A stretch of 64,000 nucleotides of DNA from an uncultured Methanosarcinales archaeon (GTDB taxonomy: Archaea; Nanobdellota; Nanobdellia; Woesearchaeales; JACJVV01). Position numbers and translations under genes: made by a program. The notes beneath the pieces were generated by a model that did not search any database, had not been told where the DNA came from, and saw only the letters and a program-made list of their open reading frames with translations. Below are positions 20,929-40,626 of the stretch, one piece after another; position 1 is the stretch's first letter; each line of letters begins with the position of its first letter. The stretch spans positions 24,570 to 88,569 of the forward strand of contig CAZOOV010000008.1 in NCBI GenBank assembly GCA_964581515.1. The letters run 5' to 3'.

Positions 20929-22485
20929 TTAATTTATGAAGCCTTCTATAACCATCTTTTCTGCATATTTTGCAGGTTCTTTTATTGCTTCTTGTGTGAT
21001 TCTTATGTGGGATTGCATTTTAAATCCTACATCAATTAAGTCTTCTATATGACATGTTGTAGTTCCTTGTATGATACTTCTTACTTCCATTGAATTATTA
21101 AGCATAGTTTCATTAATTAGTTCTGTTGATGCTTGTGGGTCTATACTTAATTTTACTTTATATTGACTTTCAAATTCTCTACAGAAATCACGTAAATCTT
21201 GTTGCATAGTATATATTCTTTCTTTTACCTTTTCTGGTTCAAGCAAGAAATGTATTCCATATGATGCTGCTGCTCTTCTGAATCTTTTTGCTATATCAAT
21301 TTTTTTTAATTCTCCCATATATACACCAACTCTAGTTTCATATTTCTTTCTTACAAAATCTTTTTGATTAGTATAAGTTATTACTTTTTCTGGTTCTTCA
21401 CTTCTTAGTTTTGGTGGATTTTGTTCTAAATAGTAATTTAATGTTTTTTGTGGGTCTTGGACGAGTTCAGGAGTTACCAAGAGTTCTCTACAACTCATTG
21501 AAGGCATACTATAAAGGAAAGGATATAATGCGTTATCAATCACTTCATGCAGCCCTCTTGCACCCATTCTTAGATCAATTGCTTTTTGCGCTAATACACC
21601 TAATGCATCTTCTTCAAATTCTATATCAATCCCATATGCACCAAACTCCAGTTGTTTATTTTGGATGACAGGAGAATTTTTCATGCTAAGTATGCTACCC
21701 AATTGCTCAACATCTAATTCATCAAGTTCTGATATGAAACTTATCCTTCCTAAGAATTGACTGATGAAACCATAATTTTCTAAAGCTTTTTTTACAGGTA
21801 CTTTATCTGTAACTGCACCATAACCTAAACTCTTTTTTTCAGTCTGGAGTCCGTCAAATGCTCCGCTAAGAATAAAAAATATATCGCTTGTGTTTAATGT
21901 GACTTCTTCTACTTTTCGTTCTTCTCTATAATTTACATACATTTCAGTCCCTTGAAAAATTCTAAGTAATTCTTCTTGTACTGATTTTCCTGTGATATCT
22001 TTACCAAATCCATCTGATGACGCTGCAATCTTATCTATTTCATCCAAATAGACAATTCCTAATTGAGCAATAGCTGGTATCTGGTTTGCTCTATCAAATA
22101 ATTTCTGGAACATGCCTTCTGTACTTCTTCCAACATAACCTGCTTGTGTATATTGGGTAGAATCAGTGATGTAATACGGGACTTTTAGTAATTTTGTTGC
22201 AAGTTCAAGCATATAGGTCTTACCAGAACCTGTTGGACCCATGAATAAGAGAATTGGCTTTGGTAGATGGTCATTATCTATTCCCATCGCCTCTTTATAC
22301 TGTAATTTCTTGTAATGTGAACAGAGGGCTGTTGCAAGTGTAATTTTTGCTTCTTCTTGCCCTACAACAAATTGATCGAGATATAGTTTGAATTCCATGG
22401 GTCTTAAGTCAAATTCCATTAAGTTCATGAATTCTCTTGCCATGTATTTTCTATTCATTATACATGTTTTAAATATTTGTATCAA
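20929..22485 (-). CDS. ClpX/HslU-like AAA+ ATPase (no N-terminal zinc-binding domain; extra C-terminal ~150 aa)
   Basis: LYLDQFVVGQEEAKITLATALCSHYKKL, Walker A LLFMGPTGSGKTYM, Walker B LGIVYLDEIDKIAASS, and sensor GARGL match the ClpX-type unfoldase family. No ClpP or HslV gene adjacent. Confidence 0.7.
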   Translation of the reverse strand: MIQIFKTCIMNRKYMAREFMNLMEFDLRPMEFKLYLDQFVVGQEEAKITLATALCSHYKKLQYKEAMGIDNDHLPKPILLFMGPTGSGKTYMLELATKLLKVPYYITDSTQYTQAGYVGRSTEGMFQKLFDRANQIPAIAQLGIVYLDEIDKIAASSDGFGKDITGKSVQEELLRIFQGTEMYVNYREERKVEEVTLNTSDIFFILSGAFDGLQTEKKSLGYGAVTDKVPVKKALENYGFISQFLGRISFISELDELDVEQLGSILSMKNSPVIQNKQLEFGAYGIDIEFEEDALGVLAQKAIDLRMGARGLHEVIDNALYPFLYSMPSMSCRELLVTPELVQDPQKTLNYYLEQNPPKLRSEEPEKVITYTNQKDFVRKKYETRVGVYMGELKKIDIAKRFRRAAASYGIHFLLEPEKVKERIYTMQQDLRDFCREFESQYKVKLSIDPQASTELINETMLNNSMEVRSIIQGTTTCHIEDLIDVGFKMQSHIRITQEAIKEPAKYAEKMVIEGFIN

Positions 22486-22594
22486 CTAAAATATGTGTTT
22501 GAATTAGTAGTTTACTGATTATTTGATAAGATTAGAATTTAGATGTCATAAGCATTAAATTTTTAAATGGTTATTAAATTCTTGATTGTATTAT

Positions 22595-22761
22595 AGCCCC
22601 GTAGTGTAGTGGTCAATTAATGTTTATGCATTAGACCAATCATCCAGGATTTTGGAATGAGAACCTTTATTGTTTCTTATGAAAATGTCCTGGGACCTCG
22701 GTTCAAATATCAAAGTGGAGCGATGAAGCTCAAACTTTGTTTGAAAGTCCGGGCGGGGCTA
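22595..22761 (+). tRNA. intron-containing tRNA, my fold gives tRNA-Pro (anticodon UGG); at least two, probably three introns
   Basis: Acceptor stem AGCCCCG (22595-22601) pairs with CGGGGCU (22754-22760), discriminator A22761; U8 present. T-arm 5' strand CUCGG (22697-22701) and canonical T-loop UUCAAAU (22702-22708); the 3' strand CCGGG lies 40 nt away (22749-22753), implying an intron at 60/61. Anticodon stem AGGAU (22646-50) and loop UUUGGAA (22651-57), then a 29-nt insert and GUCCU (22687-91). D-arm region 22603-22645 is ~25 nt too long and did not fold for me. Confidence 0.55.
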
Positions 22762-22762
22762 T
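22747..22762 (+). repeat. attL: 16-nt gtccgggcggggctat, the 3' exon end of the tRNA
   Basis: Identical 16-mer recurs at 28974-28989; the 11-mer gggcggggcta recurs again at 29950-29960. Confidence 0.65.
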
Positions 22763-22825
22763 CTTCCTTTTTGAAAGGTTTTAGGGACAAGTTTTATATA
22801 TTGGTATTGTTTAGTTAGTTCTAAT

Positions 22826-24100
22826 TTGGTAGATTTGAAGCTGAAAAAGAAAAAAGAGAAGCAAAAAGAGCCTAAACCGATTAAAGGTATTTCTAAACAA
22901 AACTCTGATTTAATACTTCAATATTGTAGTGATATGGCTCAAGGAAAGAATGTTGCACCGACAAGTACTAAAGGTCCTAGAGCTAAAGATAGAGTTGGTT
23001 CTTTGAAAAGCAAAATGAAAAGAATGACTGAATTCATTGAAGAATTGTTTGGTGTTACTGATTTAAGAAATCTTACAGATGACTATGTTCTTGAATTGAT
23101 TAATGGTATGCGTACAGGTAAATATAGACAAGAAGATGGTAATAAATATGAGTCTGTAGATAGTTATGCAAAAACACTTGCTGCATTTTGGCATTGGTAT
23201 ATGCGTATTGAAAGGAAAAAAGATAATCATGTTCAAGATATTATGCTTGATGTTAAGAAAACAGGAGATAAAAAACCACCATGGGTTTATATGAATCAGG
23301 AAGAATTCAATAAATTTGTTAATAGATGTAAATGGGATTATAAGATATTATGCACCTTCATATATGATTCTGGTATTAGGTCACCCTGGGAATTGAAAAA
23401 TATTAAAGTTTCTGATATTACTTGGGATGAGAAAAATGAACGATATCAGTTATATATAAGAGATGAAGTATCAAAAACATTTGCTAGAAAGATTAAATTA
23501 ATGTTGTGTACTAAACTCTTAAAAGAATGGTTAGCAGAAAGAAATGGTAAGGAATTATTATTTGATTTAAATCCAGAAATAAATAATCAATATTTGAAAA
23601 GAGTTGCAGAAAGAATATGGGGAGAGAAAACAAGCAAAGGAAGAAAGAAATATAAGGATATTATAATGATGGACTTACGGCATAGTTCTGCTTGTTATTG
23701 GTTACCACGATATAAGTCTGAATCTAATTTAAAATATAGATTTGGTTGGAAAAAGTCTGATATGATACATTATTATTCAGAATTTTTAGGAATGACTGAT
23801 AATATTCAAGAAGAAGATTTACTTGTTGATGTGAGTGCAACTGAACTGCAAAATAAGTTTGAGGAAGAAAAGAATCAGAGATTACTTATGGAAGAAAATA
23901 TGCAACAGCAACAGAAAGAGTTTGAAGAATATAAAGAAGCTATGAATCCTATTTTAGAGAAACTAATGCAAGGTTTAGATGGTATGGAAATGGTTGGTAG
24001 ACAACCTAATGGTGCTGGTATATTTAGTAATGCTAAACAGAAGAATAAACCAAAGATAAGTAAGAAAGATGTTGAATTTGCTAAAGGTAGGAATAAATAA
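22826..24100 (+). CDS. int: tyrosine recombinase / integrase
   Basis: Box I-like SGIRSPWEL, HxxR-like MDLRHSSACYWL, and candidate catalytic Tyr in DMIHYYSEFLG. 64 nt from attL. Confidence 0.75.
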   Translation: MVDLKLKKKKEKQKEPKPIKGISKQNSDLILQYCSDMAQGKNVAPTSTKGPRAKDRVGSLKSKMKRMTEFIEELFGVTDLRNLTDDYVLELINGMRTGKYRQEDGNKYESVDSYAKTLAAFWHWYMRIERKKDNHVQDIMLDVKKTGDKKPPWVYMNQEEFNKFVNRCKWDYKILCTFIYDSGIRSPWELKNIKVSDITWDEKNERYQLYIRDEVSKTFARKIKLMLCTKLLKEWLAERNGKELLFDLNPEINNQYLKRVAERIWGEKTSKGRKKYKDIIMMDLRHSSACYWLPRYKSESNLKYRFGWKKSDMIHYYSEFLGMTDNIQEEDLLVDVSATELQNKFEEEKNQRLLMEENMQQQQKEFEEYKEAMNPILEKLMQGLDGMEMVGRQPNGAGIFSNAKQKNKPKISKKDVEFAKGRNK

Positions 24101-24136
24101 AAATGTTTATAGATTATAATATGCAAGAGATGTGTA

Positions 24137-25411
24137 ATGATGGATAAAAAGGGTCAAATAACTTTTTTTATAATTGTTGGAGTAATTTTCATATTATTAG
24201 TACTATTCTTTATTCTTTTCAATAATACTTCTTTTGAAGTGGACAATGTAAATAGCTTAGATACAGGTCAAATTCAATCTTATGTTACTTCTTGCATTGA
24301 AACAACAGCAGAAAAAGGAATTTATTTTATTTCATTGCAAGGTGGATATTATGAAACTTCAGTACCTTATCAACAATATGCTTTTATGGATATACCTATC
24401 TATTGGGATAGTCAGTCAAATATTCCTGATAAATATGTTATTGAACAAGAATTAATTAAGTATATCAAAGCAGAAGTAAACAACTGTCTGAATAATTTTA
24501 CTTTTTTAAAGAAACAAGGATATGATATAACAAATGGTTCTATTGTTGGTAATGCTGTTATAAATGACAATGGGATTGTATTGAACATTGAATATCCATT
24601 ACGTATAATATTTGGAGAGGAACAAGGTACAATTGATAGATTTAAAGCAACTATTGATTTTGATTTTCAGAGAATATATGGTATTGTAAATAAAATTATT
24701 ACAGAACAGATTAAGACGCCTAATGATATGCCATTAGGTTATATTTCTTATTTAGCTTTTGAAGAAAATTTTTTATTTGAGACCGTTAGTATAGAGAAAG
24801 ATGTTATACTTTTTGAATTAATATTTAATGATACTTATAATGGTCAACCTTTTATTTATGCTTTTGTAAGTAAGTATAATTGGTCAAATCTTGATTATGA
24901 TAATAGCTTATATGTTGAACCAATCCCATCATTTATCATTAATGAAAGTAGTACTTTTGAATATACAGTCAGAGCAAATGGAAGTAATGTTCAATATTCA
25001 GATTATACTGGTTTATTTGATATACATGAGAGTACAGGATTAATTATATTTAATACTGATAATGTACCTAATGGTGAACATAATATTTTGATTAAAGTAG
25101 TAGATGAAAATGGCAATGAGGGATATGCTTATATGCATTTGACCGTTGATATGCCTAATCAAAAACCAATTATTAATCCAATAGGTGATCTAACTGTAAA
25201 TGTTGCTGAAGAGTTTGTTTATACAGTTCAAGCATCAGACCCTTCAAATACATTTCTGACTTATCTTGATGATACTGGATTATTTAATATACATCCAATG
25301 ACAGGGAAAATAAAGTTTACACCTACATTAACTGGTAATTATTCAATAAAAATTACTGCTTTGAATGGAGAAGGTCATAGTTTTGAATACATGAGGTTAG
25401 AAGTAATATGA
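24137..25411 (+). CDS. element-encoded membrane-anchored protein with repeated Ig-like segments
   Basis: N-terminal TM (ITFFIIVGVIFILLVLFFILF). C-terminal half has two similar ~90-aa segments (FEYTVRANGSNVQYSDYTGLFDIHESTGLIIF and FVYTVQASDPSNTFLTYLDDTGLFNIHPMTGKIKF). Confidence 0.5.
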   Translation: MMDKKGQITFFIIVGVIFILLVLFFILFNNTSFEVDNVNSLDTGQIQSYVTSCIETTAEKGIYFISLQGGYYETSVPYQQYAFMDIPIYWDSQSNIPDKYVIEQELIKYIKAEVNNCLNNFTFLKKQGYDITNGSIVGNAVINDNGIVLNIEYPLRIIFGEEQGTIDRFKATIDFDFQRIYGIVNKIITEQIKTPNDMPLGYISYLAFEENFLFETVSIEKDVILFELIFNDTYNGQPFIYAFVSKYNWSNLDYDNSLYVEPIPSFIINESSTFEYTVRANGSNVQYSDYTGLFDIHESTGLIIFNTDNVPNGEHNILIKVVDENGNEGYAYMHLTVDMPNQKPIINPIGDLTVNVAEEFVYTVQASDPSNTFLTYLDDTGLFNIHPMTGKIKFTPTLTGNYSIKITALNGEGHSFEYMRLEVI

Positions 25412-27519
25412 GATTATCATATTTGTTGATACTGTTATTAGTTATTCCAGTAGTATTTGCACCATGTCCTCCAGGAGATAGTGGGGATAGTTGTGATTAC
25501 ACAAGTCAAGAAGATATAAATAAATTAGAAGGACAAGACCTTGTTACAGCAATTAATGAGGGTAAAATAACAGATCTTGATTTAGTGGATGATAATAGGC
25601 TTGCAGATGCTATTAGAACTGATCCTTCAATCTCAAATGATTTAGGGAATACTGACTTAGCTAGAGCAGTAAATCAAGATTTATCTCTAATGGATAATCC
25701 ATCTGTTATGGATGAGTTTGATTCAAGAGCACAATCCAATACGCATATACTAAATAATAATCCAAATATTAAGGAAAGGTGGTTTGCTGATAATGGAATA
25801 ACAGATGATGGAGCAGAGATTGAAAATTATGATGGTTCTATCGTTAGTACGAAAGGCAGTCAAGCAACTACATTTAATATTAATAATCATCCAGGAGCAA
25901 GAGTTACAAAAGATGGCAAGTTAGTATTGGTTGATGGAACAGAGATTGCTAATGCTGATGTAACTATTTTAGAAGATGGGAGTTTAAATATTGATGCTGG
26001 TAATACTGATTTGTCTGATTCTGACAGTGCAGATGTTCATGTGAATGCTGGAACTGTTCAGATAGATGATAAATTATATACCACCACAGATAGCTCTACA
26101 ATAAATGTAGCTATTAATAATGGTATAACAAAAATTACAGGTGAAAATATAATTGAATCTCAAGATGGCATAGTAACTGCTGCTTTTTCAGGTGAAATCT
26201 CACTATTTTCAGACGGACATATGGCTTTTGCTGCAAATACCGAATATAGTCAATATAGTAATGGAGAAAAATCTAAAACAGTTACTGTAAATGGTTTAAC
26301 TGAATTTTATACAAATGCAGGATGTGATGAAACAGTTAGTTGCATCCAATATGTTGATGGTAATATGAGAGTTATTGCAAAAGATGATAATAATATTGAT
26401 ATTAAGACGTTTGATGATTCAATAGAAAGATTAGTTGTTGATGGAATTAGTGATGAAAGTACAGTTGTTTTTAATGACAATGGAAATGTTGAGATGACTT
26501 TTTCTAATAATCCAGTTGTTGTTAAAGGTGAATTAACTCAACTGCAAACAGTAGTTGAAACGGATATTACTGTAAAAGAAGGAGTAGCAATCAAACAAAT
26601 ATATTCAAGTGATGGCGTAGAAGTAATCCCCATTAATCCCGATGGAGCTGATAGATTTGCTAATTCTATCTATTGGAAAAGAGTTAGTGAGGATGGAGAG
26701 TTTGTTGATTTGACTAGAGAAGAAGTGATTGAGCAATATGGTATTGACATTGTTTTTGGAGATGACATTGAAGTAAGTGAGGAAGTTCGACAAGCAGTTA
26801 TTAGTGATATTGTGAATTATTATGAAACTTTTCCTTCTCCTGATGATAAAGATGTTATAACTATTAAGATAGAAAGTAATAATGCACGAGGTTCAAGTTA
26901 TGATATACGGGATAATTCTATTAATTTAGTATTAAATGAAGATGGTTCTTTATGGGCAATAAGTGATGAAATAGGTAGTTTTGGAACAATAAGGCATGAA
27001 TTAGCTCATCTACATGAGGATCTTCGTTATCCTTCTTTGAGTAGAGCTAACATGGCGAGTCTTGGAGTGGAAGGAAGGTCTTATTTTGAAAGTGTTATAT
27101 TACAAACTCCATTTTTTCAAGAGTGGATGAATATACAAGGAATTGAATCAACTGCAGATTTAATTGCTAACCAGAATACCTTGACTACACTTAAACCATC
27201 AGATAATGAAGAGTATGGGAATGTAAGAGTTTGGAGTAATGAAGAATGTAATTCTCAAGATCCTTGTCATGGGTATATAAGACCTTATGGAACTGTTTTA
27301 ACTGAAGATTATAGTACTTATGTAGAAAGGATTACTGCTGATCCTACATTCTTTATGAGAAATAATTTAGTTGGTGATAATTCTGACCCACGTTACAGAC
27401 AAAAAATAGACCTTTTGCTTGAGCATAATTATATAACTCAATATGAATATGATGCAGTATTTTATCCTGAAAGGTATTTTACTGATGAAGAATTGCAACA
27501 ATTATTAGCTAACTCTTAA
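25408..27519 (+). CDS. element-encoded secreted protein with HExxH (zincin-like) motif
   Basis: Signal peptide (LLILLLVIPVVFAP); HELAHLHEDL at ~residue 530. Overlaps the upstream gene by 4 nt (ATGA). Confidence 0.5.
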   Translation: MRLSYLLILLLVIPVVFAPCPPGDSGDSCDYTSQEDINKLEGQDLVTAINEGKITDLDLVDDNRLADAIRTDPSISNDLGNTDLARAVNQDLSLMDNPSVMDEFDSRAQSNTHILNNNPNIKERWFADNGITDDGAEIENYDGSIVSTKGSQATTFNINNHPGARVTKDGKLVLVDGTEIANADVTILEDGSLNIDAGNTDLSDSDSADVHVNAGTVQIDDKLYTTTDSSTINVAINNGITKITGENIIESQDGIVTAAFSGEISLFSDGHMAFAANTEYSQYSNGEKSKTVTVNGLTEFYTNAGCDETVSCIQYVDGNMRVIAKDDNNIDIKTFDDSIERLVVDGISDESTVVFNDNGNVEMTFSNNPVVVKGELTQLQTVVETDITVKEGVAIKQIYSSDGVEVIPINPDGADRFANSIYWKRVSEDGEFVDLTREEVIEQYGIDIVFGDDIEVSEEVRQAVISDIVNYYETFPSPDDKDVITIKIESNNARGSSYDIRDNSINLVLNEDGSLWAISDEIGSFGTIRHELAHLHEDLRYPSLSRANMASLGVEGRSYFESVILQTPFFQEWMNIQGIESTADLIANQNTLTTLKPSDNEEYGNVRVWSNEECNSQDPCHGYIRPYGTVLTEDYSTYVERITADPTFFMRNNLVGDNSDPRYRQKIDLLLEHNYITQYEYDAVFYPERYFTDEELQQLLANS

Positions 27520-27941
27520 AACCTTTTAATTTTCTATCAGTTTCCATTTCTGGTATCCGATGGGTTGCGCCTAGAACAACCTCGCGGAACCGCCTTTTAA
27601 ATTTAGTAGTGAGGGAATACTTGGACTGAACTGCTAATTTAAATGGTTAGGTGAGCATAAATAATAGCGCAACTTATCGGAAATGGAAACGTACTGCTGC
27701 CACCACTATTACTTCTATCTGTTTCCAGAGTGGACAACGAAGGGTTTGCGCCTTAAATATTTTTGAAAATGCGTTAGCTATTTTCTTTTTAGAATTTTTT
27801 GATTAGTTACCTGTTTTGTTTTACACCATTTTACTATGTTTTACCCCTTATTGTGTAGTTTTGAGTACTGTTGTTACCGTCGAGGTTTAACACACTTTGT
27901 ACAAGTAGGGTATTTATTTATATAGAGTAAGTTATAACACT
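27520..27941. promoter_or_regulatory. structured non-coding region of the element, candidate replication origin and rep promoter
   Basis: GC-richer than flanks. Inverted repeat cagtttccatttctgg ... cggaaatggaaacg ~130 nt apart, a third copy ctgtttccagagtgg, and direct repeat gggtt(t)gcgcct. Lies directly upstream of rep. Confidence 0.35.
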
Positions 27942-28940
27942 ATGGACATCATGAAATACGATGTCAATCAAAAAAGTTTGTTGGAATTCCCTTATTCACT
28001 TGAAAATAAAGCAACATCTGGAACAAATAATAGAGAAAAAGAAGTAGAAGTAATTATTAATGGACTAAAAGAATATCTTGGTGTTGATGAATCATTGGAT
28101 CATGAGATATGGAAGTATATTAATCGATTAAGGTTGTGCTGTAAACAGTTTTTAACGCTTACATGTGATAATGGTTGTGGTAAGTATAAAGTTGGAATAG
28201 GTTGTAATTTAGCAGTATGTCCTGTGTGTGGTAAGAAACAGTACAAAAGGTTCATATCAAAATATAAGGATAACTTTAGAAGTTGGATGAATCCAAAACA
28301 TTTGACTTTAACATTAAAGAATTTAGATACAATAACAATAGAAGATTATAAAACGCTTTCTTATTGGTGGAAAAGGTTACGGCAAGAACTTAAAAGACAT
28401 GGTGACAAACATAACGTTAAGTATGAGTTTACTTATGGTATATGGGCATTTCATAATCATAACTATGGTAGAGGTTATCATTTACATTTACATATTGTCT
28501 TTGATGGTACAAGAATACCACAGCGTCTAATAAGTAGATTGTGGGAAAGGATTACTAAAGGTTCTAAAATTGTAGAAATACATGAGATAATAACAACTAA
28601 ACAGTTGAGTAAAGCAATTCAGTATGTTGGTAATTATGTAGTTAAGGGTGGTGGTAGTGAAGCTACTGTTCATACACTACTTGAAATGTTCTTTGCTAGT
28701 CGTAATGTGAGAAAATACAATACCTTTGGTAAGTTAAGGGTTGAGATGAAACGAGCTAAATTAACCTCTATCTGTCCTTTCTGTGGTGCTGTAATGGTAT
28801 TTGATGGTATTTTTATGAAATTTGAATTGGAGTTTACAAGAAAGCCATTCTTCAAGCCAATATTCAAACTGCGTCCAAAAACAGAAACACAGTTAAATAT
28901 CAACCACTTTACTTCAACTAATAATGCTGATAAAGCATAA
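27942..28940 (+). CDS. rep: rolling-circle replication initiator (HUH endonuclease Rep)
   Basis: Motif I FLTLT, CxxC...CxxC zinc finger, motif II HLHLHIVF (HUH), motif III YVGNYVVKG (Y-x3-Y...K), all in the canonical order. Confidence 0.7.
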   Translation: MDIMKYDVNQKSLLEFPYSLENKATSGTNNREKEVEVIINGLKEYLGVDESLDHEIWKYINRLRLCCKQFLTLTCDNGCGKYKVGIGCNLAVCPVCGKKQYKRFISKYKDNFRSWMNPKHLTLTLKNLDTITIEDYKTLSYWWKRLRQELKRHGDKHNVKYEFTYGIWAFHNHNYGRGYHLHLHIVFDGTRIPQRLISRLWERITKGSKIVEIHEIITTKQLSKAIQYVGNYVVKGGGSEATVHTLLEMFFASRNVRKYNTFGKLRVEMKRAKLTSICPFCGAVMVFDGIFMKFELEFTRKPFFKPIFKLRPKTETQLNINHFTSTNNADKA

Positions 28941-28973
28941 TCATGTTTCTTAATTCTTTCATAATGGTCGAGT

Positions 28974-28989
28974 GTCCGGGCGGGGCTAT
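28974..28989 (+). repeat. attR of element 1 (also attL of remnant islet): gtccgggcggggctat
   Basis: Exact 16/16 match to the tRNA 3' end at 22747-22762. Confidence 0.65.
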
Positions 28990-29081
28990 AGAGTATTTTG
29001 CGACCTTGAAGGGTTTTATGCCCTTTTTGGTTTTTTCTAAAAAACTTGTATTTTATAAGATATATATAAACATGGGCTGGC

Positions 29082-29852
29082 TTATCTTTTTCTTTTAATA
29101 ACTTTAGAAAACAACAATATTATGTTACGAACTAAAATAACTATAATATAGGAGTATATTGTATTAACTATAAAGAAGATTAACAATAAAGAAGGACTAA
29201 ATACCTGGAAGTCTCCAAAACCTCCTGTCAATAACTTGTATGGAAAGGCACTAGGGAAAAAAAGAAAGATTCCTAACCCACTATATAATTTCATAAGTTC
29301 ATATAGAAACGATCTGAAAGGTAATAAATAACCAAGAATTGGTGAAAAAACCCATATGACAAAAAATAAATTTAAAATAATAACTGAAATTATTGTACCT
29401 TTAGACAAATCTAATTTAATATATCTTTGGATAGCATAAATTATCGAACCAATAATTAAACCACCAATACCTAGAATCAACAGCAAGGGAAGGATTTGAT
29501 ATTTGATTACCATGGGAAGATTTGTGCTTAAGGTAAAACCTCGTGAACGAAACCAATGTAGGGTAAGGATAATGCATTCAAAAAAACCAATAATCAGATA
29601 AATTAAAAAAGGAGTTAGGCAAATACTTGTTATCTTAAAATATGTTGAAAAAGATCTGTAAGCTTTTAAAATATATTTGTAGTTAACTATTATTAAGATA
29701 ACACATAATATTACAATTCCTAAAGCTTCTGCAAAAAATTGTGTGCTTTGACTAATAATTGTAGTGAAATAATAGTAGACAATAAATAAAAATGAGATAA
29801 TTAAGATAAGTGAAATACTGGTACGAACAATAACTCCCTTTTTTTCTTCCAT
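29082..29852 (-). CDS. polytopic membrane protein (islet cargo)
   Basis: 256 aa, ~8 hydrophobic helices, basic C-terminus. Lies between the second and third att copies. Confidence 0.5.
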   Translation of the reverse strand: MEEKKGVIVRTSISLILIISFLFIVYYYFTTIISQSTQFFAEALGIVILCVILIIVNYKYILKAYRSFSTYFKITSICLTPFLIYLIIGFFECIILTLHWFRSRGFTLSTNLPMVIKYQILPLLLILGIGGLIIGSIIYAIQRYIKLDLSKGTIISVIILNLFFVIWVFSPILGYLLPFRSFLYELMKLYSGLGIFLFFPSAFPYKLLTGGFGDFQVFSPSLLLIFFIVNTIYSYIIVILVRNIILLFSKVIKRKR

Positions 29853-29949
29853 ATGAATTAATTTATCTTGATAATTTAAATCTTTTATCCTTTTTTAGAA
29901 ATATAGCAGTTATATTATATCCCTTAAACCTTTCAAAAACCCATTAACA

Positions 29950-29960
29950 GGGCGGGGCTA
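29950..29960 (+). repeat. third partial att copy gggcggggcta
   Basis: 11/11 identical to the tRNA 3' end; delimits a ~1-kb tandem remnant islet (28990-29960). Confidence 0.5.
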
Positions 29961-30033
29961 CTTCTTTTCTTAATAATATGGTTATCATCATCATTATGGC
30001 AATTTTTATAACTGCAAGAATAATCTTCTATTC

Positions 30034-30825
30034 ATGCTAATGATTAATTGGCCTTTGGTCTTGTTTACAACAGTTGCACTTTATGCTCTGACAATATTAT
30101 TATTGCCTTTCAATGCTATATATGCAACAATATTTTTGTTTGCAATAATATCATTTTGGAGCAGACTTCCTGGTGTAGGAATACCTCATCCTTTATTCAT
30201 ACTTTATAATACAGATTTTGTCGATTTGTTTGCTCTTTTGCTTGCTGTAAATCTAGGTCCTCATTGGGGTATAACAATGGTAGTATTCGGCAATATCTGG
30301 TCAAGGGTTTGTGGCGTACATCCTGAATGGGGCGCCGTAGTCAGTGACACGCTTTCCTTGTCAACAGCATGTCTATTCATGCCTTTTGTCCATCCTATGT
30401 TAGGTAGTGATATCTTATATTCGATGTTTGCTTTTACAGCTATTAGATGGGTCTTTTGGCAGATCTATGATGTTTTTGTCTGGCCTCAAGTTTGGGCAAA
30501 TATATGGCATAAGGTAGCACTTACACTTATCGGCACTCCTGTTATCTTCATAATCAATGGCTTTTATGCTTCTGTTTTTGGAGATTTCTTTGATAAGCTA
30601 CTTGAGAAAGGTGTTCAATTCAATTGGATACTTTTCTTTTTTGTTACAGCTATAATCACTATCTTTTATGTTTCTGTATTTGGATTTTCAAAAAGCCATT
30701 CAAAAGCAGTCAAGAAGACTGTTAGGCGTGTGATTAAAAATAGGATTAAGAAAAAGAAAGAAGTTGGTAGGAGTAGTGAGAATACTGAGCTTGATGATAT
30801 GAGAAGGATACAAAATAATATTTAA
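30034..30825 (+). CDS. polytopic membrane protein, paralog A (unknown family, WSRxPGVG motif)
   Basis: 263 aa, ~8 TM, basic tail. Full-length similarity to 39719..40519 (NWP...LYxLTIxxLPF..YATIFLFAxIxFWSRxPGVG...). Confidence 0.6.
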   Translation: MLMINWPLVLFTTVALYALTILLLPFNAIYATIFLFAIISFWSRLPGVGIPHPLFILYNTDFVDLFALLLAVNLGPHWGITMVVFGNIWSRVCGVHPEWGAVVSDTLSLSTACLFMPFVHPMLGSDILYSMFAFTAIRWVFWQIYDVFVWPQVWANIWHKVALTLIGTPVIFIINGFYASVFGDFFDKLLEKGVQFNWILFFFVTAIITIFYVSVFGFSKSHSKAVKKTVRRVIKNRIKKKKEVGRSSENTELDDMRRIQNNI

Positions 30826-30852
30826 TGTGTTTGTTTTAATCAGAATATTTAT

Positions 30853-31572
30853 TTATCTGACTTCTTTCCATTCCTTGGAATATGATCTCTTGAAGAAGAG
30901 ATTATACCAATAGTTAAGGAAGTATACCCAAAATATCTTAATATAACCTTCTTTTCGAAATCTTCTTGGAGATCCATAAATTGTGACATCATGGAAAAAC
31001 TTTATCTTGCCGACTTTCTTTAGTCTTGCAAATAAATCATAATCTTCTCCTGCATTGAATTTCTCATTATATCCACCTATCTTTTTGAAAGTACTTTTTC
31101 TGAAGATCTGGCACTCTCCTCTTGCTGCTGATGAGCCAAATAAAGTGAGAATCTTAATTACAATATCTAATATGAACTGTGCAATCCTATCTGACCATAT
31201 TAATTCTTCAGGATATATCTTGACATTTGCTGTTGCTCCTACAATTTTCTTGTCTTCAAATGCTTCATTGATTCTCTTAAAGATTTTACCATCTTTGCCA
31301 ATCCTTATATCAGCATCAAATTGTACTATTATATCACCTTTAGCTGCATATGCTCCTGCATTTCTTCCTTGAGGAATATTTTGTCTTGTCTTCTTTTTGT
31401 GGACTACGACTGTATCAGCATATTTTTTGGCTATTTTAATGGTAGCATCACTGCTGCCTGCATCAGAAACAATAACTTCTAGATTGAATTTCTTTTTTAA
31501 TGTCTTGAATTGTTTAAGAGTACGTCCTATACATTTCTCTTCATTCTTTGTTGGTAAGACGACGCTTATCAT
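30853..31572 (-). CDS. family 2 glycosyltransferase (Dpm1/dolichyl-phosphate sugar synthase-like)
   Basis: VVLPTKNEE...VIVSDAGSSDAT...QFDADI (DxD)...AGEDYDL; GT-A fold signature; 239 aa. Confidence 0.8.
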   Translation of the reverse strand: MISVVLPTKNEEKCIGRTLKQFKTLKKKFNLEVIVSDAGSSDATIKIAKKYADTVVVHKKKTRQNIPQGRNAGAYAAKGDIIVQFDADIRIGKDGKIFKRINEAFEDKKIVGATANVKIYPEELIWSDRIAQFILDIVIKILTLFGSSAARGECQIFRKSTFKKIGGYNEKFNAGEDYDLFARLKKVGKIKFFHDVTIYGSPRRFRKEGYIKIFWVYFLNYWYNLFFKRSYSKEWKEVR

Positions 31573-31575
31573 GCT

Positions 31576-32016
31576 TTATCTCCATAAGAAATACCATGAA
31601 AGGAGTGAAATAACTATTCCTACGATATAAAATAATGGTATAGCAAGTTTTCCGCACTTAAGCCAAGGATACCAAGTTACATGTTTAGGATTCCACCACT
31701 TTATGCTGAATTTAGGATTTACTAAGAACCATCCGAAATCTTCTACAATAACGCCTGAAGAATATGCACTTAGTACTATACCAAACAATCTCCAATCAAA
31801 TCCAAATATTATGAAAGGCAATGTCATAAGTACTGGGTACATGATAAAGAATAACCAGAAATGGTACGCTGTCAGAACTGTGTAATTACCTATTTTAAGT
31901 TTCCATCCTAATTTTCCTTTGTCCCAAGGATGATTGCCTTCTACATATGCTTCCCAAAAAGAAGTGGCAATCATGGCTAGATAGACCCAACCAAAAGTTA
32001 AGTAGATATTTATCAT
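31576..32016 (-). CDS. small 4-TM membrane protein co-transcribed with the GT2 gene
   Basis: 146 aa, Trp-rich, 4 hydrophobic segments; 4-nt gap to GT2 start. Possible GtrA-like partner (inference). Confidence 0.45.
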   Translation of the reverse strand: MINIYLTFGWVYLAMIATSFWEAYVEGNHPWDKGKLGWKLKIGNYTVLTAYHFWLFFIMYPVLMTLPFIIFGFDWRLFGIVLSAYSSGVIVEDFGWFLVNPKFSIKWWNPKHVTWYPWLKCGKLAIPLFYIVGIVISLLSWYFLWR

Positions 32017-32114
32017 ATTTTAATTTTAGATTGTTTTGTTTATAAAAGTTTGTATAAGATTTGATTGAAATCTATTATCAAAATCTATTTAAATACAAGA
32101 ATTCTGGAAATCAT

Positions 32115-33404
32115 ATGCGAATCATATTTGGAGTGAACAGTGAAGGCATGGGACATGCTACAAGGAGCTGTGGTGTAATAGATTATCTTTTGAAGAAAGG
32201 CCATGAAGTCCATATCTTTACTAGCGATCGTGCTTATGACTACCTTTCAAAGAAATTTAAGAATATATATAGAGTAAAGGGTTTTCATGTAATTTATCAT
32301 AATGATTCTGTTCGTAATTTTCATTCAGCAGTATTTTTGCTTAAAACGCTTGATAAGGATCTTGTTACAACATATCATTTTCTTAAAGAATCTATTAACA
32401 AGATTAAACCTCATGTGATAATATCAGATTTTGAAAGCCTTACAGCTTTTATGGGGAAAAAAGCAGGAATACCAGTAATCTCATGTAATAATATCTCAAT
32501 CATAAATAGGACTAATATCGATATGAGGCTTCTTATAAAATTATATCCTAAATTATTTAATTTTACAGCAGAAATACTTCAGACTTTTGATTCAGATTAT
32601 TATTTTATTCCGACTTTCTTTTATCCTGAAGTTAAATATCACAATGTGTTCTTGACTGACCCAGTAGTCAGAAAGGAAATATGTAAACTTCGTCCAAAAT
32701 ATGGTAATCATATTCTTGTATATCAGACTTCTTCAACTAATGTAAGGCTTCTTAATTTACTTAAAAAGATAAAAGATGAGAAGTTTATTGTTTATGGTTA
32801 TGGGAAAAGAAAGACTGATAAGAATTTGATATTCCACGAATTTAATGAGACAAAGTTCCTAATTCATTTTGCAAATGCGAAAGCAGTATTCATGGGTGGG
32901 AGTTTTTCTTTGCTTTCAGAAGCATTATATCTTAAAAAACCAATTGTCAGTGTTCCTTTAAGAATGCACTTTGAGCAGATGGTTAATGCATTTTATGTTG
33001 AGAAGTGCGGTTATGGAAAATATCATGAGGTTTTATCTGAAAAGAATGTTTATGATTTTCTTGAGAATATTGATGTATATAAGAATAATCTTAAGAAATA
33101 TAATTTTAGTCCAACACAATTTTCTGAGAAGATTGAAGCAATGGTCAGGATTATCGGAAAAGAACCAGATGAGAAGAATATCCGTAAATTGTACAAATAT
33201 ACTGCTATCAAAAGGATGATACTTCTTTCTTTGGTTGCTACAATGTTCCAGGCACAGCTTAGAGGAGCAAAAGACATACTTAAGACAAATCCGCTTAAGG
33301 TACTTAAAATGGATTATAAGCCATTATCACATTTAACAGGTTACCCAAGAAAAGTTTATAAAAACATCTCTAACTTTATTGTTAATGATAAAAAGAAGAA
33401 ATAG
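32115..33404 (+). CDS. GT-B-fold glycosyltransferase, MJ1255/TIGR00661-like
   Basis: N-terminal MRIIFGVNSEGMGHATRS (G-x-G-H-x-x-R glycine loop of MurG/UGT-like GT-B enzymes). ORF extends to 32061; start placed at internal Met. Confidence 0.5.
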   Translation: MRIIFGVNSEGMGHATRSCGVIDYLLKKGHEVHIFTSDRAYDYLSKKFKNIYRVKGFHVIYHNDSVRNFHSAVFLLKTLDKDLVTTYHFLKESINKIKPHVIISDFESLTAFMGKKAGIPVISCNNISIINRTNIDMRLLIKLYPKLFNFTAEILQTFDSDYYFIPTFFYPEVKYHNVFLTDPVVRKEICKLRPKYGNHILVYQTSSTNVRLLNLLKKIKDEKFIVYGYGKRKTDKNLIFHEFNETKFLIHFANAKAVFMGGSFSLLSEALYLKKPIVSVPLRMHFEQMVNAFYVEKCGYGKYHEVLSEKNVYDFLENIDVYKNNLKKYNFSPTQFSEKIEAMVRIIGKEPDEKNIRKLYKYTAIKRMILLSLVATMFQAQLRGAKDILKTNPLKVLKMDYKPLSHLTGYPRKVYKNISNFIVNDKKKK

Positions 33405-33599
33405 GTTCTTAAATGCCTTATCTAAGTTCTTGTTATTCTCAGCATATATACATTTTATCTTATTAGTTTCATATACATTTTATCATATGGATTTTATGTC
33501 TATGAATTATTTCAATATATTAGATTTAGAATTTTTATTCCCATCAATCTTAGAAGGTTTAAGGATGCAGATACTTGCTGGATTGATTGCAGTTTTTAT

Positions 33600-33878
33600 C
33601 TATGTCCTTTTTTTCTTTGATTTCTTCTGAGATGATTTTGAAGAATTATTTCTTGAATCTTTTGACTTGTTTTTTTCTACATTCTCTAGTCTATAGTGTA
33701 ATTTTAGGAGTTCAGCATATAATAATCCTATTACACATAGAAGGAAACTCTCAGCAAGAGTCGTAAAATGGATTACATAAGCATATATTGCAACTAATAT
33801 ATGTCCTGCAGCTATAATGAGTGTGAATGCTTTTCTTTTAGGCGGTAGTGCTTGAAAATGTTTGTCTATTATGTCCAT
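33600..33878 (-). CDS. small 2-TM protein with Lys/Ser-rich tail
   Basis: 92-aa ORF downstream of dus on the same strand. Confidence 0.3.
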   Translation of the reverse strand: MDIIDKHFQALPPKRKAFTLIIAAGHILVAIYAYVIHFTTLAESFLLCVIGLLYAELLKLHYRLENVEKNKSKDSRNNSSKSSQKKSKKKRT

Positions 33879-33913
33879 TTTATTATCCTCTTTTTTTAGC
33901 TTAATCTTATATT

Positions 33914-34861
33914 TTATTTGATTATAGTTCTTATCTCTTTTATTGTTTTTGCTTTTCTGATTAATTTTTTAGCTGCTGGAGCTCCTTTTGTCTGATGCAA
34001 AAGCCAGATGCAATGATCCTTTATTTCATTGAGCGATTCTCTATTCTCATATCTTATATAGAAGTCTATGAAACCCTTTATCAGTTTTTTAGGGTTTTTT
34101 GTGTCTTTACTAAATTCGCCCTTGCTTTTGCCGTTATCAAGGAGGAAGTTTGTGTATTCGAAGATCTCTGGATTTCTCATTGCCGCTCTTCCTATCATGA
34201 CAGCATCGCATCCTGTTCTTTCTATCATTGATTTTGCATGACCTGGCAGAGTTATGTCTCCATTTCCAATAACTGGTATTGAAACATTATCTTTTATCTC
34301 TTTGATTATATTTATATCTGCTTTTCCGCCGTAATGTTCTTCTGCAGTCCTTGGATGTACTGAGATTGCTGATATCCCTTCTTTTTCTAGAATCTTTGCA
34401 ACTTCTAATGCGTTTATGTTATTATTCCATCCTGAGCGAATTTTTGCAGTGACTGGTTTTTTTGTAGCTGATACACATGTTTTTGCTATTTTTGCTATAT
34501 GTTCACGTGATTTCATTAGATAACTTCCTGCTTTTTTCTCTAGAAATTCATCTTCTGGACAGCCAAAGTTTATGTCAATGATATCAACATATTTTTCTGC
34601 TATCTCGACTGCTGTTTTCCAATCATCTTTTACAGAGCCAATCAGTTGTAGTGCAATTGGTGACTCTTCTTCTTTTATATTGAGAAATTCTGTTAAGGAA
34701 CCATCATGATGCTTCTCTATAATTGTTTCTACCTCATACATCTGTGTGAAAAGAAGCCCAACATTGTATTTTCTGCATAAGAACCTAAATGATGTACAGT
34801 TCACTCCTGCCATAGGTGCAAGCACTGTCTTGTTCTCTATGTTAATATTTTTTATTTTCAT
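33914..34861 (-). CDS. dus: tRNA-dihydrouridine synthase (Dus)
   Basis: VLAPMAGVNCTSFRFLCRKYNVGLLFTQM..., the INFGCP catalytic-Cys region, and a TIM-barrel FMN pattern; 315 aa. Confidence 0.85.
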   Translation of the reverse strand: MKIKNINIENKTVLAPMAGVNCTSFRFLCRKYNVGLLFTQMYEVETIIEKHHDGSLTEFLNIKEEESPIALQLIGSVKDDWKTAVEIAEKYVDIIDINFGCPEDEFLEKKAGSYLMKSREHIAKIAKTCVSATKKPVTAKIRSGWNNNINALEVAKILEKEGISAISVHPRTAEEHYGGKADINIIKEIKDNVSIPVIGNGDITLPGHAKSMIERTGCDAVMIGRAAMRNPEIFEYTNFLLDNGKSKGEFSKDTKNPKKLIKGFIDFYIRYENRESLNEIKDHCIWLLHQTKGAPAAKKLIRKAKTIKEIRTIIK

Positions 34862-34895
34862 TAAGAATCAGTCCTTGATATTATTATTGTTATTA

Positions 34896-35285
34896 TTATT
34901 TATTGAAATTTTTTAGTTTTGTCTGGAGCTTTTTATGTAACTTGACTATTTTTGGACTATGGATGTGCTGAATTATGTCAAGATATTCTCCTACACTCTT
35001 ATTTATGTCATTAAATATCTTGAATCCTTTTTTTGTGAAGCTGAGTTCCTTATTCTTGTATTTTATATATTTCTTTTTTTCTAATGATTCAAGATTCTTG
35101 TATAATGCTCTTGATTTCTTATGTGCAGATTTTGAAGATATCAGAATATCTATAAAGACGCTCTTTGATATCGTAACTGCTAATGGTTTATTTGTGAATC
35201 GATTACTGAAGCGTCTATAACATTGTCCTAATGAGTACAATACGAATATTTCTGGTTTTGATAGTGTAGACTGCTTCTCAGTCAT
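34896..35285 (-). CDS. hypothetical basic protein (possible winged-helix)
   Basis: 129 aa, K-rich. Confidence 0.4.
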   Translation of the reverse strand: MTEKQSTLSKPEIFVLYSLGQCYRRFSNRFTNKPLAVTISKSVFIDILISSKSAHKKSRALYKNLESLEKKKYIKYKNKELSFTKKGFKIFNDINKSVGEYLDIIQHIHSPKIVKLHKKLQTKLKNFNK

Positions 35286-35374
35286 TTTACCTCTTGTTTT
35301 ATAGGATTTATTGACTAGAATATATATAATTTACTGTGTCTTTAGGTTCATTGCTTAAGAATTGTTTAAGAATT

Positions 35375-35713
35375 TTATTTGTGATGCATATAACCTGGAA
35401 GAGTCTTTGCTGTTAGTGCTTGTCCTGCCCTGAATCCATATCCCAGAAATTGTCCAGGTAAAGATAGTACATATATGCATGTTCCTTCAACTGGCCCATG
35501 CACTTCTTTATCTGTTCTGAACATCTGTACTGCACTGTTTTTGACAGCGGTTCCCATATTGCTTGTAGTATACCCATAGTAGAAATCAAATTCTTTAACA
35601 GCATTTACTGCTCTTATCCCATTCAAAGCGATGAATGTAGAAGCCAATAATCCGCATAAGGTCCTTATTGCTCTTTTTTCTGTTTTTGTTTTAGCGGGTT
35701 TTGATTCATTCAT
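35375..35713 (-). CDS. small secreted protein
   Basis: Signal-like N-terminus (LCGLLASTFIALNGIRAVNA). 4-nt overlap with the upstream 562-aa gene. Confidence 0.4.
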   Translation of the reverse strand: MNESKPAKTKTEKRAIRTLCGLLASTFIALNGIRAVNAVKEFDFYYGYTTSNMGTAVKNSAVQMFRTDKEVHGPVEGTCIYVLSLPGQFLGYGFRAGQALTAKTLPGYMHHK

Positions 35714-37398
35714 ATTTTATCCCTTGGTGGTCTATCTTTGCCTTGATATTCATTTTTGTTATCTTTATTTGTCATTGTTTCTAATTTATATATTCCTTTA
35801 TTGATCTGATCGACAATCCTATCTCTCCATGTAGGCTTATAATCAGACTTTGGTTCTTCATATTTTTGTTCTGGCTCTTCTTGTTTAGGTTCATCTTTCA
35901 TTGTTGTTGTGTGGATCATGCTGCTGAATCTGCTTTTTTTTGGTCTGTCCCATGAATATGTCTCTTGTCTTCCTCTAAGCCATTCATCCCTGTCGCTGTT
36001 TCTTGATTTTCTTTTTTCTTTATACCAATTGAAGTTGTTACCTAACCTGTCAAGTCCGAAGCCTGCTGCTCCACCGACAAGTAAACCAAGTACGCCGTAA
36101 ATCGCGACCATCCATCCTCTGTATTTTTCCATGGTAAATCCTCCATGGAAGCTTTTTTCATATAAATCAATTACAGTATCCCTTATTTCATATGCTTGTT
36201 TTTTTATTTCGCCTTTATCTTCTACTCTTCCATATAAGACATCATCTACATACTTGTCAATCTTCGCTTTTAGACCTGGAATTCTTCCTTGAGCATATTG
36301 GATCGGTTGGATCGCGTCTCTTAATGATTTCTCTAATGATTGACCGTGTGCAAGTGCTGATTCAGCTAATTGGAATTCTCTAGGTCCAGAATGACTTCTG
36401 CTTGTTGTATTATAATGAACTGTTTTAGCAGTTGCTTTTGCTGCTCTCCATTTAGGAGCATCTTTTTTCATAGTAGCCAATGGATCTCTGAATGTACCTC
36501 TGTTTCTGTGCAGGTTTGATCCAAATCTCCATGTATTTGCAATCCTTACGATATCAGCTTCAGTCATTTCTTCTATATCTTTTTCTTTCTCTCTGCTTTC
36601 CATGATTGCGTCTCTGTTCTCTTCTCCTACTTTTGCAGCCATCATCATGTTAATATTTATTGAAAGATCCTTAAATTGCGCTACTAATGCATCTAAACTT
36701 TGAGAAGCAGCTTCTCCTGCTTTCTTGTGATATGTGAAATAATGATCTGTATCGTCATATACATCTACCCAATATGTTTCAGTAGAATAAGTTGTATTTC
36801 CTTTACTGTCTGTATGAGATACCTGTCTTGTACGCATCTCTGAATGATAATTATCATCATGTTTTTCATCCCATGATCTTGCAAAATTACCATTTACTCC
36901 TCTTATTCCATTAGCGACTTGGCTGAATGGTGCTAATTCTTTAAGCGCAGCTTGTGCGTCTAGTGGGACTGTCTCTAAGAAGTCTGCAAGATTATGTCTT
37001 GGAGTTATTGTCTTGAATCCATATGTATACTCATGTGAAGACATCCTGTTGTGGAGTCTTGTAGCAAAGTTTTCATAAGCCTCTCCAGCTGATTTTGAGA
37101 ATGCGAATGAATGGTTCCATGTTTCAAGAACTTTCATTATTGTGTCATTAAGTCCTGCATGATATAGTGTGAAAGAATCTACTTCTTTTTCCTGAGCTGC
37201 TGCATTGTCTTTTATCTGGCTGATCTCTGAGAAGCCGAGTTTGAATATCTTGTCTCTGTTGTATTCCCATCTCTGACCAAGACCTGTCATCATAGCAGCG
37301 CTTAGAAGTCCAACTACTGCTATTTCAGCAGGAGTTTCTCTAAAAAGCCATTTCATTCCTTTTAAAGATTTCAGGTAAGCATTGCTAATTTTGCTCAT
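35710..37398 (-). CDS. large hypothetical membrane protein (2 TM)
   Basis: 562 aa; TM near N-terminus and at ~430 (WMVAIYGVLGLLVGGAAGFGL); charged C-terminal tail. No known domain. Confidence 0.55.
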   Translation of the reverse strand: MSKISNAYLKSLKGMKWLFRETPAEIAVVGLLSAAMMTGLGQRWEYNRDKIFKLGFSEISQIKDNAAAQEKEVDSFTLYHAGLNDTIMKVLETWNHSFAFSKSAGEAYENFATRLHNRMSSHEYTYGFKTITPRHNLADFLETVPLDAQAALKELAPFSQVANGIRGVNGNFARSWDEKHDDNYHSEMRTRQVSHTDSKGNTTYSTETYWVDVYDDTDHYFTYHKKAGEAASQSLDALVAQFKDLSININMMMAAKVGEENRDAIMESREKEKDIEEMTEADIVRIANTWRFGSNLHRNRGTFRDPLATMKKDAPKWRAAKATAKTVHYNTTSRSHSGPREFQLAESALAHGQSLEKSLRDAIQPIQYAQGRIPGLKAKIDKYVDDVLYGRVEDKGEIKKQAYEIRDTVIDLYEKSFHGGFTMEKYRGWMVAIYGVLGLLVGGAAGFGLDRLGNNFNWYKEKRKSRNSDRDEWLRGRQETYSWDRPKKSRFSSMIHTTTMKDEPKQEEPEQKYEEPKSDYKPTWRDRIVDQINKGIYKLETMTNKDNKNEYQGKDRPPRDKI

Positions 37399-37504
37399 AT
37401 AAAGGGAAAGTGATTATTTGTTTATAAATGTTATAGTTTTAACTACTAGTAAGTGGTTACAAAACGAAAACTTTATAAATAGAAGGAATCTGCTAGTGTG
37501 TATG
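37399..37504. promoter_or_regulatory. compact bidirectional promoter with two palindromic TTTATAAA boxes
   Basis: tttataaat at ~37432-37440 and ~37467-37475 (self-complementary TATA-like), each ~25-35 nt from the divergent ATGs at 37398 (minus) and 37505 (plus). Confidence 0.35.
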
Positions 37505-39673: not shown

Positions 39674-39718
39674 TCTATAAATTAGTTTTCTAAATCTTCA
39701 GAGGGAGGGCAATCTTTT

Positions 39719-40519: not shown

Positions 40520-40626
40520 CTTTGTTACCCCCTAATATTGGTAGCAGTTGTAACTATTTTAACTTTTATCCTCCTAATTGGGACTATAAACGAAAGGTTT
40601 ATATTGTATAGTGTGGTTATATTGGT

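Follow-up and report, generated by a model that had tools for sequence, protein, structure and literature searches.

A probable tRNA-Gln(UUG) gene with three bulge-helix-bulge introns in a Woesearchaeota-like DPANN archaeon

The 64,000-nt stretch of archaeal DNA analysed here (the window) contains, at positions 22595-22761 of the + strand, what is very probably a tRNA-Gln(UUG) gene of a Woesearchaeota-like DPANN archaeon, interrupted by three protein-spliced bulge-helix-bulge (BHB) introns. The transcript would be spliced in the manner established for archaeal tRNA processing. The gene is of a split kind that was known before and that escapes standard gene finders; as many as three introns in one archaeal tRNA are already documented, and our analysis adds a tRNA-Gln example from a lineage that is poorly catalogued. 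Added interest comes from a conserved three-intron tRNA-Gln clade to which the gene belongs, from a relative that is precisely intronless, and from the use of the gene as an integrase target site.

Exon-intron structure and predicted processing

The 167-nt tRNA-like sequence was present as the initial annotation had described it, with a perfect 7-bp acceptor stem (AGCCCCG/CGGGGCU), U8 and a discriminator A, and with a T-stem (CUCGG/CCGGG) and T-loop (UUCAAAU) in which the 3' strand lies 40 nt further on than expected. The following list gives its four exons and three introns together with two putative flanking signals.

22560-22567, + strand: TATA-box-like TTTTTAAA, a possible archaeal promoter, ~30 nt upstream of the mature 5' end
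22595-22616, + strand: exon 1, 22 nt; acceptor 5' strand, U8 and A9, D-stem 5' strand, D-loop to A21
22617-22639, + strand: intron 1, 23 nt; D-loop, Sprinzl position 21/22, relaxed BHB
22640-22655, + strand: exon 2, 16 nt; D-stem 3' strand, C26, anticodon stem 5' strand, U32 to G37 with anticodon UUG
22656-22686, + strand: intron 2, 31 nt; canonical position 37/38, strict hBHBh'
22687-22707, + strand: exon 3, 21 nt; G38, anticodon stem 3' strand, variable loop GGAC, T-stem 5' strand, U54 to A59
22708-22747, + strand: intron 3, 40 nt; T-loop, position 59/60, hBHBh'
22748-22761, + strand: exon 4, 14 nt; U60, T-stem 3' strand, acceptor 3' strand, discriminator A73
22762-22772, + strand: T-rich tract TCTTCCTTTTT, a possible archaeal terminator judged from sequence only; conserved beside the intronless allele L130 described below

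Because the region is AT-rich, the promoter call on TTTTTAAA is weak and only putative. The anticodon arm consists of the stem CAGGA/UCCUG and the loop UUUUGGG with anticodon UUG, that is, a standard 5-bp stem and 7-nt loop.

Each of the three junctions is able to form a 3-nt bulge, a 4-bp helix and a 3-nt bulge. The search for BHB or relaxed motifs that had been suggested with the initial annotation returned a fully paired central helix (H 4/4) at all three junctions, the one in the D-loop being relaxed. Both flanking helices are present at introns 2 and 3. In intron 1, the central helix GGUC/GACC is accompanied by the bulges AA-U and AA-U and by the inner hairpin UAAUG/CAUUA (H 4/4 and h' 6 bp in the BHB scan); there is no directly abutting outer helix, the D-stem being offset by 4 unpaired bases. 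Intron 2 combines the central helix UUUU/GAAA and the bulges GG-A and AU-G with an inner helix of 7 bp (H 4/4, h 7, h' 7). In intron 3, the central helix UUCA/UGAA lies between the bulges AA-U and AG-U, the T-stem serves as the outer helix (H 4/4, h 5), and the inner part is made up of the stem CAAAGU/ACUUUG and a GAGC/GCUC hairpin. The motif GCGAUGA, which resembles a C-box or K-turn half-site, occurs at 22719-22727 and also in the T-loop intron of another tRNA-Gln locus (L091), maybe by chance.

The exons have a G+C content of 57.5%, against 29.8% for the introns and 33.4% for the whole window. Folded as a single strand, the 167 nt reach -62.8 kcal/mol, compared with a shuffle mean of -39.2 (z = -6.56; 0 of 200 shuffles match). 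This minimum-free-energy fold has the shape of a cloverleaf with three extended arms and contains the caaagu/acuuug helix around a gagc...gcuc hairpin that had been pointed out earlier; the conformation in which all three BHB motifs are formed (-46.7 kcal/mol) is not the minimum-free-energy fold.

ARAGORN called no tRNA in the whole unspliced 64-kb window, and Rfam gave no family at its gathering score in the window and no tRNA at E <= 10 around 22300-23100; at 22595-22761, the Rfam miss is what is expected of a three-intron gene. Removal of the three segments left a 73-nt canonical cloverleaf that ARAGORN called tRNA-Gln(TTG), and when the D and T inserts alone were removed, the intron mode of ARAGORN itself found the 31-nt anticodon intron. 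An unguided MAFFT alignment with 11 intronless homologues opened exactly three gaps, of 23, 31 and 40 columns. The boundaries were also enumerated blindly, by scoring each of 23,609 BHB-compatible segment combinations that leave 73 nt against a profile built from 64 real genes. The highest ranks went to variants of the chosen three introns, and the chosen set had a PSSM score of 102.2, real genes scoring 84.4-118.4.

The predicted spliced product is identical at 73/73 positions to an intronless tRNA-Gln(UUG) at positions 1323-1395 of L130 (JGI 3300009320 Ga0117909_1036139), a locus that we reached via a homologue of the neighbouring integrase. In a pairwise alignment of the window with L130, the exons were 100% identical and the three gaps of 23, 31 and 40 nt fell at exactly the predicted intron bases. 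Rfam RF00005 matched the L130 tRNA over its full length with 54.6 bits (E = 2.8e-11; gathering score 29). The check by ARAGORN or a covariance model that had been proposed earlier failed, then, on the unspliced gene and succeeded on its spliced form, which ARAGORN called tRNA-Gln and whose sequence is the one scored in L130. An independent JGI assembly, which shares 17,275 nt with the window at 100% identity, carries the same 167-nt gene, so that the gene is no assembly artefact.

These results uphold the earlier view of a multi-intron archaeal tRNA gene with a canonical 37/38 intron, a 40-nt T-arm intron and an intron in the D-arm. The last of these had been put forward as a probable third intron in an over-long D-arm, and both the gap against the intronless homologues and the L130 allele support it, at 23 nt. 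The other two needed adjustment: the anticodon-loop intron had been assigned to the right site, but it measures 31 nt and not 29 nt, the stem register having been off by one, and the T-arm intron keeps its length of 40 nt but moves from 60/61 to 59/60 by BHB geometry, a shift that leaves the spliced sequence the same. That the locus is a chance cluster of GC-rich hairpins, or a mere attachment site and no tRNA gene at all, has next to no probability. The 3'-terminal 16 nt do coincide with the att core of an integrated element, but that core spans just the last 14 nt of the gene, and the full-length match to the tRNA-Gln family lies far beyond chance. In the window, the 22-nt 5' exon has a single occurrence, against an expectation of 0.

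In the processing that we propose for this tRNA-Gln gene, a precursor of at least 167 nt would be transcribed, the splicing endonuclease EndA would cut both bulges of each BHB, RtcB would ligate the four exons, and RNase P and RNase Z would trim the ends. CCA would be added, since it is not encoded at the 3' end of the gene, and the tRNA-Gln would be charged via GluRS and then GatDE. Because the D-loop BHB is relaxed, a broad-specificity EndA would be needed, which would imply a broad EndA substrate range in the lineage. A scan of 26 window ORFs revealed no EndA, the window being only a fraction of the genome. Broad-specificity EndA in DPANN is associated with an L3 loop in PMC5829648.

Isotype of the spliced product

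The gene had been read in the initial annotation as tRNA-Pro(UGG), a call that was not borne out and that goes back to an anticodon arm read one base out of register; homology and the 73/73 identity with L130 indicate tRNA-Gln(UUG). A tRNA-Pro(UGG) with three introns would have an anticodon intron of 29 nt and the loop UUUGGAA or UUUGGAU. A strict BHB can be drawn for it one base over, with the 5' exon ending at A62 and the 3' exon starting at U92 (H 4/4, h 6, h' 6); the energy of its anticodon arm is -7.7 kcal/mol, compared with -8.6 kcal/mol in the Gln register, and ARAGORN calls the corresponding splice variant Pro(TGG). The two BHB registers of the anticodon intron are thus about equal in structure and energy, and thermodynamics gives no choice between them. 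The Gln register is preferred over the Pro register because of homology, namely the matches of the 5' exon and the intronless L130 allele.

Exon 1, which is identical in L130, recurs, unchanged or nearly unchanged, at the 5' end of at least 120 archaeal tRNA-Gln genes. Scanned against archaeal genomes with three R/Y positions, it matched at least 120 loci, and ARAGORN called mostly tRNA-Gln (TTG or CTG) on 121 such matches; the only Pro calls among the 121 (L052, L063 and L101) were made in its intron mode on intron-bearing genes. The spliced product aligned without gaps to 64 distinct intronless archaeal tRNA-Gln genes, and on the 64-gene alignment 97.1% of the cloverleaf cells were paired, as against 80.3% after shuffling. 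A1-U72 was found in 65/65 aligned tRNA-Gln sequences, the window included, and A73 was nearly invariant. A1-U72 and A73 are the identity elements for GatDE.

In the Gln register, the product is a standard cloverleaf of 73 nt that has G37 and A1-U72. The Pro register demands a product of 75 nt with A37 and either a 6-bp anticodon stem or a 9-nt loop, and it loses the fit of the D-stem; an NGG anticodon combined with a 5-bp stem, a 7-nt loop and G37 was not found at 22595-22761. The 5' exon, A1-U72 and the full spliced sequence all agree with tRNA-Gln genes, and the anticodon loop UUUUGGG is shared by the intronless relatives L050, L067 and L119. The intronless L130 allele shows exactly the junction of the Gln register, which effectively refutes the Pro isotype; we regard tRNA-Pro(UGG) as highly improbable and retain tRNA-Gln(UUG).

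Relatives, host lineage and possible intron loss

The same exon-1 scan recovered 40 intron-bearing tRNA-Gln genes, with introns in the D-loop (8 genes), at 37/38 (21 genes) and at 59/60 (17 genes). All three sites are filled only in the window within this 40-gene set; singly or pairwise, they are used in many other archaeal tRNA-Gln genes. The site of intron 1 is filled in 7 other tRNA-Gln genes and in two further loci, L141 and L139. Our automatic BHB picker went wrong for the anticodon intron (in L139) and for the D intron (in L093, L101 and L106), and these introns were placed manually or omitted.

Exon and intron positions covary among these genes. In the T-loop, the window has A57-U, with an unusual A57, where 16 homologues have G57-C. 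In the central helix, U32-A alternates with C32-G among ~40 homologues, and the wobble base, U34 or C34, follows its intron partner in the ~40 intron-bearing homologues.

Two closer relatives (L141/L142 and L139/L140) were found via homologues of the diphthine synthase. L141/L142 is a 184-nt tRNA-Gln(UUG) gene with introns of 20, 46 and 45 nt at the three sites of the window gene, all with central helices of 4/4. Its exons differ from those of the window at 1 nt, exons 2 and 3 being identical in the window, L130 and L141, and the intron interiors are unrelated save for the ends that form the BHB. L139/L140 is a 247-nt tRNA-Gln(CUG) gene with a D-loop intron of 34 nt and a T-loop intron of 110 nt; its anticodon-loop insert of ~30 nt has a poorer BHB and was placed by hand. 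ARAGORN called neither the L141 nor the L139 gene. A metagenome pattern scan for exon 2, a gap and exon 3 gave 0 matches, and a metagenome scan for diphthine synthase gave 7 loci, with a tRNA-Gln near 0/7.

The window gene adjoins an integrated element, is followed downstream by several partial copies of its 3' end and is uncalled by standard finders, as might be expected of a decaying or disabled tRNA gene whose insertions are unremoved scars, for example of mobile elements active at an integration hotspot, with the functional tRNA-Gln located elsewhere. We judge this quite improbable. The four exons are intact and identical to the L130 allele, which is intronless and looks like a working gene, and each insertion lies within a BHB whose central helix is 4/4. 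The L141 gene, whose flanking genes are ~30% diverged, keeps the three sites and the BHB ends despite a different intron sequence, and the changes between exon and intron positions are compensatory.

Several other features were observed in the tRNA-Gln genes of the scan. The T-loop introns of L064 and L110 measure 112-115 nt, and the insertion in L015 is longer. A ~34-nt palindromic repeat, CAAACTTTTAGAAAAAGTTTGATCAAAAACGGAAA, occurs twice in the L064 intron and once, in part, in the L015 insertion; by its sequence it looks like a small mobile repeat carried within the intron. In L026, a 25-nt tRNA-Gln 5' fragment with an intronless exon 1/exon 2 junction lies ~1 kb from the complete gene, where the same junction is interrupted by a D-loop intron.

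Proteins encoded in the window include a thermosome, FtsZ, diphthine synthase, L7Ae and L11, and the window shares its diphthine synthase/tRNA-Gln neighbourhood with Woesearchaeota MAGs. Its best protein matches carry the names Woesearchaeota, Nanoarchaeota or Nanobdellota. These findings point to a host among the Woesearchaeota-like DPANN archaea; from the initial guess of Thermoproteales, DPANN or Korarchaeota, it is the DPANN part that stands, and neither synteny nor best protein matches indicate a Thermoproteales host. Three MAGs labelled 'uncultured Methanosarcinales' (L027, L055 and L060) show diphthine-synthase/tRNA-Gln synteny of the Woesearchaeota type, L055 having FtsZ as well, and these labels look doubtful.

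The nucleotide identity of the diphthine-synthase region is 78% between L130 and L141, 70.5% between the window and L130, and 69.5% between the window and L141. By this flanking-gene identity, L130 appears to be closer to L141 than to the window. Parsimony over this one short region suggests that the three-intron state was ancestral to the window, L130 and L141 and that L130 has precisely lost all three introns. Such a precise and simultaneous loss would point to gene conversion, or to a cDNA of the spliced tRNA that recombined with the gene.

Three other features of the window were noted. A ClpX-like AAA+ gene (Pfam AAA_2 and ClpB_D2-small) lies on the - strand at 20929-22485, between a small ORF and the tRNA; it was found only in the lineage of the window and is absent from this place in L130 and L141. 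The ORF at 33914-34861 (- strand) encodes a Dus-family dihydrouridine synthase (Pfam E = 7.9e-70), here in an archaeal genome. An intergenic cluster of perfect GC-rich hairpins at 990-1190 includes two copies of GATGAAATTTTGCAATTTCATCCAT, and a comparison of the cluster with Rfam gave no convincing match.

The adjoining element and known systems

A 6.2-kb element (22747-28989) adjoins the 3' end of the tRNA gene, with four ORFs between two copies of a direct repeat.

22747-22762, + strand: attL core GTCCGGGCGGGGCTAT, consisting of the 3' exon and 1 nt on each side; exact 16-nt direct repeat with 28974-28989
22826-24100, + strand: tyrosine integrase (Pfam Phage_integrase, E = 4.2e-5 and 23.8 bits, under the curated cut-off of 27.1 bits)
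24137-25411: large ORF with an Ig-like He_PIG domain, within the element
25408-27519: large ORF without a Pfam match, within the element
27942-28940: weakly rolling-circle Rep-like ORF (weak PHROGs match), within the element
28974-28989, + strand: attR core, the second copy of the tRNA 3' end, which closes the element
29950-29960, + strand: third, partial copy of the tRNA 3' end, GGGCGGGGCTA

By chance, 0.01 matches would be expected for the 16-nt direct repeat. Homologues of the integrase numbered 1985 at E <= 1e-5, many of them with PF00589 and several named as integrases from Nanoarchaeota or Pacearchaeota; the integrase had no match in PHROGs, and a viral-contig scan with it found no relatives. 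A 4.5-kb member of the element family, with 82-94% nucleotide identity, occupies the same site beside the intronless L130 tRNA, where the element arm left of attR is also conserved. L141 presents an empty site, in which the homologue of window positions 39713-41341 comes immediately after the tRNA with no integrase between them; ~17 kb of the window (22762-39712) therefore looks like an island of serial insertion or rearrangement. The GGGCGGGGCTA copy is probably a remnant of an older integration, and nine other tRNA-Gln loci have downstream duplicates of the 3' end of 12-21 nt. The locus thus displays the marks of a tRNA-targeting element, namely a tyrosine recombinase beside the tRNA, a repeat at the far border and an empty site in a relative.

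Since the att core is confined to exon 4 and the element occurs in hosts with as well as without introns, the T-loop intron forms no visible barrier to integration, and the idea that the introns block integration is unsupported. The use of the 14-nt 3' exon by the integrase with or without the intron argues against a simple protective role of the latter. We also considered whether the arm left of attR (..CGAGUG-U) mimics the 3' end of the T-loop intron, and dropped this idea because the same arm is found beside the intronless L130 gene. That the intron content of tRNA-Gln in this clade is under active reshaping, perhaps through a conflict with the very large family of DPANN integrases that target the 3' end of the gene, seems to us rather unlikely; if it were true, T-loop position 59/60, where att identity blocks begin, would be a hotspot common to introns and integrases.

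The element resembles other tRNA-targeting tyrosine-integrase elements in that its integrase adjoins the 3' end of the tRNA and that it is bounded by a direct repeat of this end. In a T-loop sublocation class that Williams reportedly described in 2002, the att identity block of the integrase extends from the T-loop to the 3' end of the tRNA. Unlike in those elements, the att core here coincides with the fourth exon and follows right after the T-loop intron.

With three BHB introns, two of them non-canonical, the window gene ranks among multi-intron tRNA genes (at least two BHB introns, at least one of them non-canonical). Related lineages hold alleles of this one tRNA with 0, 1, 2 and 3 introns, and the intronless allele equals the spliced product. 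Such an allele set would be useful for studies of the gain and loss of BHB introns and for the training of intron models specific to DPANN. ARAGORN and Rfam miss the window gene and the L141 and L139 genes, so genomes of this DPANN clade would seem to be without tRNA-Gln. This apparent absence skews estimates of tRNA complement and completeness, a problem raised in PMC5829648, where incomplete DPANN tRNA sets are predicted to reflect unidentified disrupted tRNA genes.

Up to three BHB introns per tRNA gene are established chiefly for Thermoproteales, among them Pyrobaculum and Thermofilum (Sugahara et al. 2007/2008, cited in PMC4033280; PMC8450103). The window gene is like these in having up to three short BHB introns, one at 37/38 and the others at non-canonical positions that include the D- and T-loops, in being hidden from standard finders, and in the rapid gain and loss of introns. 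Unlike in the Thermoproteales, the host is a low-GC (33%) Woesearchaeota-like DPANN archaeon and not a crenarchaeote, and the sharing of introns between genes (intron transposition) known from the Thermoproteales left no sign here, where one gene was compared.

PMC3239211 and PMC5829648 link disrupted DPANN tRNA genes to broad-specificity EndA, of the epsilon2 type in ARMAN-2 and of the alpha4 type with the L3 loop in Pacearchaeota and Woesearchaeota; the parts consulted name neither the window gene nor a conserved three-intron tRNA-Gln clade. The gene described here is like the disrupted DPANN tRNA genes in that it comes from the same superphylum and carries introns at non-canonical positions and with a relaxed BHB.
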